Origin: Escherichia coli
GTDB taxonomy: Bacteria; Pseudomonadota; Gammaproteobacteria; Enterobacterales; Enterobacteriaceae
Reading direction: 5' to 3' (one strand)
Assembly: GCF_024223415.1 (NCBI RefSeq)
Contig: NZ_CP100500.1
Length of the DNA: 64,000 nt
This document shows, piece by piece, positions 13,518-25,519 of this stretch; position 1 is the first letter of the stretch; every line of letters starts with the position of its first letter. The position numbers and the translations under genes were made by a program. The notes below the pieces were generated by a model. It worked only from the letters and a program-made list of their open reading frames with translations. It searched no databases and was not told the origin of the DNA.

Positions 13518-13847
13518 ATGAAACGCCACTCCACGCTCTTTTTTTTCACCCTGCTCACGCTGACCACCGTACCGGCCCAGGCCGATATTATCGACGACAC
13601 CATTGGCAATATTCAGCAGGCGATTAACGATGCTTATAACCCTGACCGTGGGCGAGATTATGAAGATTCGCGTGACGACGGCTGGCAGCGTGAAGTGAGC
13701 GACGATCGGCGCAGACAATATGACGACCGCCGTCGCCAGTTTGAAGATCGTCGCAGGCAACTGGACGATCGCCAGCACCAGCTTGATCAGGAGCGTCGGC
13801 AGCTAGAAGATGAAGAGCGGAGAATGGAAGATGAGTATGGGCAATGA
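13518..13847 (+). CDS. yjdP: Small secreted charged-repeat protein YjdP (109 aa)
   Basis: Signal peptide then RRQ/DDR-rich repeats; matches recalled YjdP, located beside phnP as in K-12. Confidence 0.8.
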   Translation: MKRHSTLFFFTLLTLTTVPAQADIIDDTIGNIQQAINDAYNPDRGRDYEDSRDDGWQREVSDDRRRQYDDRRRQFEDRRRQLDDRQHQLDQERRQLEDEERRMEDEYGQ

Positions 13848-13868
13848 TGTTGGGTATGGAGCAGGCAT

Positions 13869-13903
13869 CGCCCCTCTGGGGAGAGGGGTAGGGTGAGGGG
13901 GCC
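13869..13903. repeat. GC-rich interspersed repeat (cccctctggggagaggggtagggtgaggggg)
   Basis: Near-identical to the motif inside the 22835..22925 palindromic element; intergenic yjdP/phnP. Confidence 0.6.
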
Positions 13904-13923
13904 AGCACGCACATTCCCTCTCA

Positions 13924-14682
13924 TCACGCCACCCCAATCTCCATCCCATCAAACCCCGCCTCAAACCCCGACGGCAGTGTGTTTTCCATCAGCCATGCAT
14001 CAAACTGATGGCTGATGTGCGTCAGAATCACGCGCGGCGAGCGGATAACCTGATTCAGCGCAAGCACGGTATTTAAATCACAGTGATTACGCGGTGCATC
14101 CTCGCACGGCGGGTGGCTGCAATCAATCACCATTACCTGCGGCTGATTATTGCGTAATAATTTCAGCGTTTTTTCCGGCAAGCCAGCGGTGTCAGACAGC
14201 CACGCCACCCGGCTGTGCGCCGTTTCCAGCAGATAACCGAAGGTCAGTTTTGAGTGGTTGAGCGGCAGGGGCGTGACCTGTAACCCCTGCAAATCAAACA
14301 CCACAAACGGTTCCACCGTGTGGCTGAAATCAAGCAGGCCCGGATGTTTAAACAGATCGTCGCAGCCCTGTTCATCCGGCGGGCCGTAAACCGGGATCGG
14401 ATCGCCCACACCCCAGCGCAGCGGAAACAGCCCCTGGACGTGATCCATATGGTAGTGCGTCAGCAAAAACTGCTGGAACGATCCTGGCGACCAGCGATCG
14501 GTGAGATCGTGCAGCCCGGCGTCGATCAGGGTGATCGCCTCGTTAAACTTCACTACGCCGCTGCACGGTTGGCGGCGATACTGCGGTGAGCGCCGCGCTC
14601 TGGCGCAGGCCGCACACTCGCAGCCCCATGCCGGAACGCCCTGTGCGCCGCCGGTGCCGGTGAGCGTGAGGGTCAGGCTCAT
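13924..14682 (-). CDS. phnP: Phosphoribosyl 1,2-cyclic phosphate phosphodiesterase PhnP
   Basis: 252-aa ORF; metallo-beta-lactamase HxHxDH motif ([10 protein letters not shown]); last gene of phn operon. Confidence 0.9.
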
Positions 14683-17496: not shown

Positions 17497-17580
<84 letters not shown>

Positions 17581-22022: not shown

Positions 22023-22802
22023 TCAGATAAAGTGCTTACGCAACCGTTGAGAGAGGAAATCCAGCAGGCTGACCGTGACGATGATAAGCACCATCAGGGC
22101 GCAGGTTTGCTGGAACTGGAAACCGCGAATCGCTTCCCACAGCGTGACGCCGATCCCGCCCGCGCCGACCATGCCGACGACGGTCGCCGAGCGGACGTTG
22201 GATTCGAAGCGATAGAGGGAGTAGGAGATAAGCAGCGGCATCACCTGCGGCAGCACGCCGTAGAGGATCTCTTCGAGCTTGTTGGCGCCGGTGGCGCGAA
22301 TGCCTTCCACCGGGCCGGGTTCAATCGCTTCCACCGCTTCGGAAAGCAGCTTGGAGAGCACGCCGGTGGTGTGGATAAACAGCGCCAGCACGCCAGCGAA
22401 TGGGCCGAGGCCGACGGCGACCACGAACAGCATGGCGAAGACCATTTCGTTAATGGCGCGGCAGGCGTCCATCAGGCGGCGAACGGGCTGGTAAACCCAC
22501 CACGGCACCAGGTTTTCGGCGCTCATCAGGCCGAAGGGGATGGAGAGAACCACCGCCAGCGCGGTGCCCCAGACGGCGATTTGCAGCGTGACGAGCATTT
22601 CGGTGAGGTAATCCTGCCACTGGCTGAAATCAGGCGGGAAGAAGTCGGCGGCGAAAGTCGCCATGTTGCCGCCGTCTTTAATCAGCGTGAGCGGGGCCAT
22701 TTCCGCGCCCTGCCACGAGACGACCAGCACGGCGAGTACAACGGCCCAGCTCAGAAGCGAGAACCAGCTGCGCTTGGGTGGGGCGATGGTGATGGTTTGC
22801 AT
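22023..22802 (-). CDS. phnE: Phosphonate ABC transporter permease PhnE (intact reading frame)
   Basis: ORF 22023..22826 uninterrupted; polytopic membrane protein; K-12 phnE is recalled as frameshifted. Confidence 0.88.
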
Positions 22803-22834
22803 GTTTGGCTCCGTGATAGTGTGCACGATCGGTT

Positions 22835-22925
22835 CCCTCGCCCCTTCGGGGAGAGGGTTAGGGTGAGGGGCAACGTGCGCGCCGATCCCCTCACCCCGGC
22901 CCTCTCCCCAAAGGGGAGAGGGAGA
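22835..22925. repeat. GC-rich palindromic interspersed element (~90 bp)
   Basis: Two arms cccttcggggagagggttagggtgagggg / cccctcaccccggccctctccccaaagggg are inverted copies; motif shared with 13869..13903. Confidence 0.65.
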
Positions 22926-22931
22926 AAACCA

Positions 22932-23948
22932 TTACTGCACCGCTTTACTCACCGAACTCATCGCGCTTAACGCGTTGTTCAGGCGGTCCAGGTCATCCAG
23001 CTGCGCCTGAATGGCGGTGGTTTTCGCCAGCTTGTCCTGCTCATTCAGCCCTTTATTGCCTTTCACGCCCTGCATCTCTTTAAACAGCGCGAGCTGGCGA
23101 ATCGGCACCAGTTGCAGGTCGCTGGAGGCGCGGAACGGCGCCCAGCCCAGGCGTTCCAGCACCGCTTTCTCTTCCGGCGTTTTTCCGTAGTTCATAAAGA
23201 AGTCGTAGATCTTGTCTTTGGTGGTTTCGGACAGATTCTTGCGCCAGACGATCGGATCGCCTGGGATCAGCGGCGATTTCCAGATCACTTTCAGTTCTTT
23301 CAACTTCTCCGGCGCGGAGGTTTTCAGCTTGTCGAGGTTCTCGGTGTTGTTAGTGGCAACATCCACCTGCTTGTTGGCGACGGCCAGCGCGTTGGTTTCA
23401 TGCCCGGCGTTGACGGTGCGCTTGAAGTCGCTGGCGGAGATATTGTTTTTGGCGAAGACGTAGTAGCCGGGGACGAGGAAGCCAGAGGTGGAGTTAGGAT
23501 CGCCATTGCCGAAGGTGAGATCTTTCCGCTTCGCCAGCAGATCGCTCAGGTTGTTGATCGGGCTGTCTTTGTTGACGATTAACACGCTCCAGTAACCCGG
23601 CGATCCGTCCGCCGCGACGGTCTGAGCGAAGACCTGGCCGTTGGCGCGATCCACCGCTTCCATCGCCGACAGGTTGCCGTACCAGGCGATATCCACTTTG
23701 TTGAAGCGCATTCCCTGGATAATGCCCGCGTAGTCCGGGGCAAAGAAGGCGTTGACCTTCACGCCAAGCTTCTTCTCCATATCCTGTAAAAACGGCGTCC
23801 ATTGTGGTTTCAGGTTTTGCTGTGATTCCGTTGAAATAATGCCGAAATTCAGCGCCTTTTCCTGTTCTTCGGCGTGTGCCGGGCTTAACAGGGTGCTGAG
23901 GCTGAACATGCTGGTGAAGGCCAGCGAGGCAATTATCTTAGCGTTCAT
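22932..23948 (-). CDS. phnD: Phosphonate ABC transporter periplasmic binding protein PhnD
   Basis: 338-aa ORF with signal peptide; matches recalled PhnD. Confidence 0.92.
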   Translation of the reverse strand: MNAKIIASLAFTSMFSLSTLLSPAHAEEQEKALNFGIISTESQQNLKPQWTPFLQDMEKKLGVKVNAFFAPDYAGIIQGMRFNKVDIAWYGNLSAMEAVDRANGQVFAQTVAADGSPGYWSVLIVNKDSPINNLSDLLAKRKDLTFGNGDPNSTSGFLVPGYYVFAKNNISASDFKRTVNAGHETNALAVANKQVDVATNNTENLDKLKTSAPEKLKELKVIWKSPLIPGDPIVWRKNLSETTKDKIYDFFMNYGKTPEEKAVLERLGWAPFRASSDLQLVPIRQLALFKEMQGVKGNKGLNEQDKLAKTTAIQAQLDDLDRLNNALSAMSSVSKAVQ

Positions 23949-23972: not shown

Positions 23973-24761
23973 TCAGGCAGCTTTCGCGTTCTCTTCGACG
24001 CGGTTGATGCTGCGGTAGAGATGGTCAAAACGTTCGTTATCAAACTGTTGGCTGCTGCCGTCGTAGAAGACGTGCCCCTGACGCAGGGCGACGATGCGCT
24101 CGCAGTAGCGCAGGGCGTAATCCACCTGATGTAGCGTGACGACCACGGTGATGCCGTCGTTCTGGTTGATGTCGCGCAGGATGTCCATCACGATGCGCGC
24201 CGATTCCGGGTCCAGCGAGGCGATCGGTTCGTCGGCGAGAATCACCTTCGCCTGCTGCATCAGCGCGCGGGCAATCGCTACACGCTGCTGCTGTCCGCCG
24301 GAGAGGGTGGAAATGCGCTGATGGGCAAAATGCACCATGCCAACACGGGTCAGCGCCTGTAACGCGCGCTGTTTCTGCTCGCGGGTGAACCAGCTAAAAC
24401 AGGTGCGCCAGAACGGCGTGCTGCCGAGCGCGCCAATCAGCACGTTCTCCAGTACGCTCAGGCGATTCACCAGGTTGAATTGTTGGAAGATGTAGCCGGT
24501 GTTGGCGCGGCTTTTGCGGATATCGCGGGCCAGACGGCCATTTTGCTGGACGGTACGGCCCAGCAGTTCGACGCGGCATTCTGGCTTTTTATCGCCGACA
24601 ATCAGGCCGCTTAAGTGACGTAAAAGGGTGGATTTGCCGGAACCCGACGGCCCAAGCAGAGCCACCATTTCACCGTGATGAATGTTCAGATCAACCGCAT
24701 GCAGCGCCTGATGCTGATTGAAGGTTTTGGCGAGCTTCTCGACACGGATAATCGTTTGCAT
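23973..24761 (-). CDS. phnC: Phosphonate ABC transporter ATPase PhnC
   Basis: 262-aa ORF; Walker [10 protein letters not shown], signature LSGGQQQR. Confidence 0.92.

Positions 24762-25400: not shown

Positions 25401-25519
<119 letters not shown>

Follow-up and report, generated by a model that had tools for sequence, protein, structure and literature searches.

An inverted pair of BoxC/TM-ECO repeats at the phnD-phnE junction of Escherichia coli and its possible REP-like role as an intercistronic mRNA hairpin

The junction between phnD and phnE in the 64,000-nucleotide stretch of Escherichia coli DNA analyzed here (the window) is filled by a GC-rich palindrome, which raises the question of what this element is, how it relates to other palindromic repeats, and whether it serves a purpose in the mRNA that would carry it. 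An earlier note had placed it at 22835-22925, in the phnE-phnD spacer, with a partial copy in the yjdP-phnP spacer. The palindrome measured here (22834-22923) agrees with that span, and the gene context proved correct by open reading frame coordinates, the names being confirmed by the RefSeq annotation of matching E. coli genomes:

22023..22802, minus strand: phnE
22932..23948, minus strand: phnD
23973..24761, minus strand: phnC
13518..13847, plus strand: yjdP
13924..14682, minus strand: phnP

The features of the two spacers are as follows:

22834..22923, no strand: whole palindrome, an inverted (convergent) pair of BoxC/TM-ECO units by arm complementarity and RNA MFE
22835..22870, plus strand: TM-ECO unit of type A (TTA second loop) with one C/G-stem mismatch ('A mm'), CCCTCGCCC-CTTCG-GGGAGAGGG-TTA-GGGTGAGGG-G, exact pattern match
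22871..22886, no strand: central spacer of 16 nt (CAACGTGCGCGCCGAT), a short-loop subtype in common with the K-12 hrpB-mrcB pair by alignment of pairs
22887..22922, minus strand: TM-ECO unit of type B (CCG second loop) with a perfect stem, CCCTCTCCC-CTTTG-GGGAGAGGG-CCG-GGGTGAGGG-G, exact pattern match
22820..22833, plus strand: conserved left flank TGTGCACGATCGGT, found in other pairs too (alignment with K-12 pairs L008-L011 and the L002 allele)
22923..22929, plus strand: conserved right flank AGAAAAC of the composite repeat, same alignment of pairs
22932..22934, minus strand: phnD stop codon (TAA), the strong helix starting 8 nt downstream on the mRNA
22800..22813, minus strand: phnE start codon (22802-22800) and Shine-Dalgarno GGAG (~22812-22809), 21 nt past the helix
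13868..13901, plus strand: degenerate single TM-ECO unit in the yjdP-phnP spacer, orthologue of K-12 TM-ECO no. 22 by published list and flanking genes

The palindrome consists of two 37-nt arms (22834-22870 and 22887-22923) that are 86% complementary around a 16-nt centre. Each arm holds a small hairpin of its own (left, CCCTCGCCCC-TTC-GGGGAGAGGG; right, CCCTCTCCCC-AAA-GGGGAGAGGG), and on the side facing the centre a 3-nt linker and a GGGTGAGGGG block come next. The 23-mer given as a motif in the earlier note (GGGGAGAGGGTTAGGGTGAGGGG) matched three places in the window at ≤3 mismatches (22848; 22887 on the minus strand; 13878), with 0.00 expected. Folded as RNA, the minus strand, which is the sense of the phn mRNA, reached -83.0 kcal/mol (z -9.55) and the plus strand -75.2 kcal/mol (z -7.39), values equalled by none of 200 shuffles on either strand; the minus-strand fold bears out the proposal that the palindrome would form a very stable hairpin in mRNA.

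Both arms match exactly the published TM-ECO pattern, 5'-CCCTCNCCC-N3-6-GGGNGAGGG-N3-GGGNGAGGG-3' (Holder et al. 2015, NAR 43:10126, PMC4666352), at 22835-22869 on the plus strand and 22888-22922 on the minus strand (0.00 expected in shuffles), and the palindrome is therefore almost certainly an inverted pair of BoxC repeat units, one of type A and one of type B. The type is defined by the second loop (A = TTA, B = CCG), and all five inverted pairs of MG1655 combine A with B (PMC4666352), a rule that the window pair follows with TTA on the plus and CCG on the minus strand. The repeat was first called BoxC, then PIT (potential intrastrand triplex) by Maher's group, and was renamed TM-ECO (PMC4666352), where the earlier literature is cited as Bergler 1992, Bachellier in the 1990s and Hoyne...Maher 2000; the same source lists 63 pan-E. 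coli loci. The family is thus long known in E. coli, and the element itself is ordinary and already described.

Searching with a 111-nt query, we detected the family in 5,408 of 5,426 complete E. coli genomes at a median of 21 places per genome, so that the motif, far from being absent elsewhere, is abundant, and the view of a GC-rich palindromic repeat interspersed at both spacers stands. What the earlier reading recognized was the repeat nature, the distinctness from REP and the hairpin; what it missed was membership of the described BoxC/PIT/TM-ECO family. Both window copies (phnD-phnE and yjdP-phnP) are intergenic. No Rfam family reached its gathering threshold in a scan of the element: miRNA precursors scored ≤37 bits against 58-168, and the dauA ncRNA motif RF04311 remained sub-threshold at 22820-22920 on the minus strand (24 bits against a gathering score of 45). 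Compared with the listed K-12 TM-ECO units, the pair in the window differs by one base in the first loop (TTC, as against TTT/TCT/TCC). K-12 itself has a REP pair instead of BoxC at phnD-phnE, and the locus is thus missing from the K-12 list.

The repeat also exceeds the published motif. When the pair in the window was aligned with four K-12 pairs and with a further phn allele, conserved flanks appeared on both sides, TGTGCWCGATCGGT on the left and AGAAAAC on the right, giving a composite of ~110 bp (22820-22929). Spurious open reading frames cross the palindrome, 22751..22894 on the minus strand being an example of the spurious peptides that had been expected from it; for annotation, the element is a dispersed repeat to be masked as a source of such frames. 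Separately, the G blocks GGGG-AGA-GGG-TTA-GGG-TGA-GGGG (22848-22870 on the plus and 22887-22909 on the minus strand) fit a four-tract G-quadruplex consensus; a quadruplex was excluded by NMR for a TM-ECO DNA oligonucleotide (Holder et al., PMC4666352).

The second copy had been reported as partial at 13869..13903 and was recovered at 13868-13901, with the 23-mer match at 13878-13900. Both G blocks are retained and the C block in part, the pattern matching at the two G blocks only. TM-ECO no. 22 of K-12 (Table 1, 4,314,285-4,314,320) has yjdP and phnP as its neighbors in Table S2 (PMC4666352) and is therefore the orthologue of this copy. Relative to K-12, the loop of the copy reads GTA for TTA and its C block lacks the 5' CCC; in the terms of PMC4666352 it is a 'mutated TM-ECO'. 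The spacer as a whole (13848-13923) is 70 bp shorter than in K-12 (L007:299-444), through a deletion that took the CCC with it and is bounded by a 9-bp direct repeat, TCGCCCCTC. In K-12, the remnant of a collapsed BoxC is joined to TM-ECO no. 22 by an AT-rich linker of ~30 nt, and the linker architecture is the same between the two copies in the tandem phnD-phnE allele of strain S51.

Could the pair nevertheless be assigned to one of the better-known classes of palindromic repeat? The REP consensus (GCC[G/T]GATGCG[G/A]CG...-type) had no match in 22800-22935 and ten matches elsewhere in the window (e.g. 17497-17579, 25421-25459 and 37448-37480), which vindicates the separation from REP units drawn earlier. 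Likeness to the REP/BIME elements that follow binding-protein genes (hisJ-hisQ, malE-malF) lies in the GC-rich inverted pair, in the strong mRNA hairpin a few nucleotides past a stop codon and in the dispersed intergenic distribution, and a REP pair occupies this very phnD-phnE site in ~70% of E. coli genomes. By contrast, the window pair is unrelated in sequence and lacks a GCCGGATGCG-type consensus. No RAYT-type transposase is known to accompany BoxC. Stabilization of mRNA or stalling of ribosomes has been demonstrated for REP, whereas for BoxC it is argued by analogy; on that analogy, the pair would work like a REP/BIME element without being one, a reading that we regard as somewhat favored as far as an RNA role is concerned.

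Miniature inverted-repeat elements (MITEs) offer a second comparison, since the BoxC composite is likewise small (~110 bp), non-coding, palindromic and multi-copy, and occurs in both orientations at the same site. Its conserved flanks, unlike those of MITEs, are asymmetric. Terminal inverted repeats are present, but trivially so in an element that is itself a palindrome, and no target-site duplication was visible when forward, inverted, short and REP alleles were compared, with no empty-site allele in E. coli. TM-ECO elements showed no association with transposons, phages or plasmids (Holder et al., PMC4666352).

The phnE-phnD spacers of six E. coli genomes represented six alleles with the same limits in each (phnD stop on one side, phnE Shine-Dalgarno/start on the other), the phnE start and Shine-Dalgarno being identical across all E. 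coli spacer alleles compared:

REP pair, 104-105 bp: K-12 and C7
long forward BoxC pair, 129 bp: the window
long BoxC pair in the opposite orientation, 125 bp
short form, 64 bp
short form in the opposite orientation, 60 bp
tandem duplication, 256 bp: strain S51

Allele-specific megablast searches (≥80% query coverage) of the 5,426 complete E. coli genomes gave the following census:

REP type: 3,744-3,878 genomes
long, inverted orientation: 349 genomes
short-inverted query: 1,331 genomes including the 349 long ones, hence ~982 short
short-forward query: up to 186 genomes
tandem forward: 7 genomes

Overall, ~70% of the genomes carry the REP pair there and ~28% a BoxC-derived sequence, long or collapsed and in either orientation, with collapsed forms about three times commoner than long ones. 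The exact allele of the window (22790-22945; a single long forward pair of 129 bp) was found in none of the 5,426 complete genomes, and the seven closest (S51, SCU-316, O78 strain 3, GPEC1446, NCTC10444, NCTC9112 and KV7) all carry the 256-bp tandem duplication. The short form equals the long form minus 65 nt, the distance at which the direct repeat CCCTC.CCCC...GGGGAGAGGG recurs within the long form, and the loss follows the same pattern as the 'palindrome effect' described for TM-ECO pairs (Holder et al., PMC4666352). The long palindrome collapses by deletion between internal direct repeats of 10-23 nt, leaving a stub hairpin of 20-odd nucleotides, and the locus is unstable in three ways, through collapse, tandem duplication and replacement by a REP pair in most E. 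coli. Comparison of the alleles shows the palindrome to be a dispersed repeat without protein-coding capacity at an unstable locus. As in the described BoxC/TM-ECO elements, exact arms, A+B pairing, intergenic position and multiple copies go together with hypervariability of the locus and collapse to a stub hairpin. A mere flip of the element from one strain to another was considered and rejected as the source of the inverted allele (L002), whose units have 9-bp stems and are nearly identical to the K-12 hrpB-mrcB pair, whereas those of the window have 10-bp stems. Every E. coli allele retains a hairpin on the mRNA strand (MFE -23.5 to -180 kcal/mol).

Whether the same holds beyond E. coli was examined in species-representative genomes, where a PhnD-based scan returned 80 loci (L013-L092); none was from Escherichia, so that E. 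albertii and E. fergusonii are not among them. Spacers from the phnD stop to the phnE start were extracted for 79 loci of enterobacterial and Vibrio species, of which 77 were measurable; in the two left out, an in-frame scan had met an early stop, leaving >300 nt of phnD-like sequence. At least one full TM-ECO unit was present in 27 of the 79 spacers, 21 of them with at least two units, in Enterobacter, Leclercia, Lelliottia, Kluyvera, Huaxiibacter, Silvania, Pseudenterobacter, Pseudocitrobacter and Buttiauxella, and the units were arranged convergently, divergently or even overlapping. Eleven spacers had a BoxC-type stub hairpin only, 27 contained REP-like units (Citrobacter, Salmonella arizonae and diarizonae, Cedecea, Dryocola and others), and ten had other hairpins, including plainly unrelated private ones in Atlantibacter, Enterobacillus and Vibrio. 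A bare spacer of 22-23 nt was seen at two of the 79 loci. Strain LSJC7 has a bare spacer of 23 nt. The MFE was ≤ -19 kcal/mol in 74 of 77 spacers, which are not 74 independent events as the sampled species are related, and z was ≤ -3 in 69 of 77; the first paired base lay at a median of 3 nt past the phnD stop. At the same loci, the neighboring junctions were short (median 24 nt for phnC-phnD and 20 nt for phnE-phnF). The loops kept in the short forms differ, ACA in an E. coli genome (L004) and TTGA in Pseudocitrobacter vendiensis (L014), and collapse therefore occurred more than once.

Three observations on these loci stand apart. Pseudocitrobacter faecalis (L013) and P. vendiensis (L014) encode PhnD proteins 99% identical to that of the window, and their spacers equal the inverted-orientation alleles of E. 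coli, tandem and short respectively, a likeness that suggests recent horizontal transfer or else mislabelled or contaminated assemblies. In Citrobacter and some further taxa (L017, L020, L022-L025, L027, L029, L036, L059, L088 and L092), the phnC-phnD junction, normally 24 nt, has grown to 49-155 nt through another repeat, AAAGACCAGGC...GCCTGGAAC, some copies of which hold a nested insert of ~85 nt. The 279-nt spacer of Pseudenterobacter timonensis (L032) has four tandem repeats of ~37 nt (…CACGAGTAAACGAAGGCACGGCGCCCTT…) between two divergent TM-ECO units.

What, then, might the pair do? REP is reported to have been discovered downstream of the binding-protein genes hisJ and malE, as an 'intercistronic regulatory element', by Higgins et al. 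in 1982 and Newbury et al. in 1987. We hypothesize that the BoxC pair is a REP-like intercistronic mRNA hairpin that sets the expression of phnCD relative to the genes downstream, a role that we consider moderately probable from the arrangement of the sequence and by analogy with REP, because the type of position is the same, a REP pair sits there in most E. coli and a hairpin is found there in nearly all species. The pair would be transcribed inside the polycistronic phnC-P mRNA, where its -83 kcal/mol stem-loop, beginning 8 nt past the phnD stop, would act as a barrier to 3'->5' exonucleases and preserve the upstream phnCD segment as REP does; stalling of ribosomes at the stop codon, or attenuation, may contribute. 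In either case the hairpin is predicted to determine how strongly PhnC/PhnD are expressed relative to PhnE and the C-P lyase genes. REP hairpins are summarized as exonuclease barriers, attenuators and ribosome-stalling elements near stop codons in the overview given in PMC12306157. Support comes also from the fact that the occupants of the phnD-phnE junction are unrelated (TM-ECO pairs, stubs, REP-like units and private hairpins), yet a hairpin is kept. The earlier suggestion of a stabilizing or processing element uncoupling phnCD thus gains comparative backing, from the K-12 REP pair at the same site and the hairpins of 74 of 77 other species.

Several points count against an RNA role. The positions of TM-ECO elements showed no relation to ORFs or operons (Holder et al., PMC4666352), and palindromic repeats may prefer to insert at pre-existing hairpins. 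The hairpins of the E. coli alleles span -24 to -180 kcal/mol in strength, which argues against tight tuning. A convergent REP pair (BIME) at 17497-17579 fills the gap from the phnK stop (17586) to the phnL start (~17478), a second expanded junction within the operon; no binding-protein logic applies there, and repeats therefore also settle wherever they are tolerated. Covariation across species would not help to decide the matter, since compensatory changes in a palindromic DNA repeat fail to tell selection on the RNA from homogenization of the repeat at the DNA level.

A rival reading is that of a neutral or selfish BoxC pair lodged in one of the few permissive gaps of the phn operon, its mRNA hairpin being an unselected by-product, an explanation to which we assign a smaller but still substantial probability. 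It accords with published surveys in which the family had neither positional or functional bias nor promoter or terminator activity (PMC4666352), with the rapid turnover and very different hairpin strengths at phnD-phnE, with the REP pair likewise present in the phnK-phnL gap, with the other repeat in phnC-phnD of some Citrobacter, and with the occurrence of the window's own allele in 0 of 5,426 genomes. A mere passenger, however, sits uneasily with the finding that 74 of 77 other, mutually related species, including lineages with private hairpins that are not repeats, carry a hairpin immediately past the phnD stop. Palindrome collapse, too, always leaves a stem-loop and never a clean deletion, and the flanking junctions stay at ~20-24 nt.

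An effect at the level of DNA seems unlikely as the main explanation, although it is compatible with an intercistronic hairpin rather than exclusive of it. Here the G-rich single strand would form an intrastrand purine-motif triplex, or the pair would extrude as a cruciform or hairpin, stalling replication and creating a hotspot of deletion, duplication and replacement; such instability may even be adaptive as a generator of variation. In vitro, oligonucleotides with identical stems fold into triplexes (Tm 70-82 C), and TM-ECO loci vary more than control intergenic regions (PMC4666352). Our fold of the G-rich strand, in which only Watson-Crick pairs were modelled, gave a small hairpin and a free third block. 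The phnD-phnE allele series adds slippage-type deletions and a tandem duplication, and the different loops of L004 and L014 imply recurrent independent collapses. Against this, DMS footprinting detected no triplex in vivo, nor was one detected with the complementary strand present (PMC4666352), and instability explains the polymorphism but not the retention of a hairpin at this junction across genera.

That the stem partly terminates or attenuates transcription between phnD and phnE, as the earlier note had also proposed, is very improbable and unsupported here: in its favor stand the high stability of the stem, the link drawn between BIME/REP elements and transcription attenuation (as cited in PMC12306157) and the short U-containing tails after some outgroup hairpins (Vibrio, Enterobacillus and Atlantibacter), but the mRNA strand has no T-run after the stem (…GGGAACCGAUCGUGCAC…), the 12 downstream genes for phosphonate use (phnE-phnP) depend on read-through, and PIT elements had neither promoter nor terminator activity in an earlier in vivo study as cited by Holder et al. 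(PMC4666352). An intrinsic terminator was ruled out, as AACCGAUCGUGC rather than a U-run follows the stem and a scan of 22600-23100 on both strands gave 0 terminator-like sites and no promoter.

To return to the intercistronic mRNA hairpin, a broader form of that reading is that phnD-phnE is under selection for any strong hairpin after the binding-protein gene, with BoxC pairs and stubs, REP pairs and private stem-loops being interchangeable; this we put forward tentatively, at somewhat less than even probability. If true, selection for any hairpin would explain why collapsed palindromes always leave a stem-loop, and a REP-like role in mRNA protection or in the control of translational coupling would be the first RNA-level function for the BoxC/TM-ECO family, an orphan since the 1990s. 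Our search of the available full-text papers from 2016 on found none giving TM-ECO a function. The phnD-phnE junction offers a clean natural allele series for asking if BoxC acts like the REP stabilizers of mRNA. Possibly new, if modest, are the interchange of REP and BoxC at one operon junction and the near-universal presence of a hairpin after phnD across genera. Downstream of the pair, phnE is intact in the window (259 aa), its K-12 orthologue being annotated 'frameshifted', and the strain should therefore possess a functional phosphonate permease.
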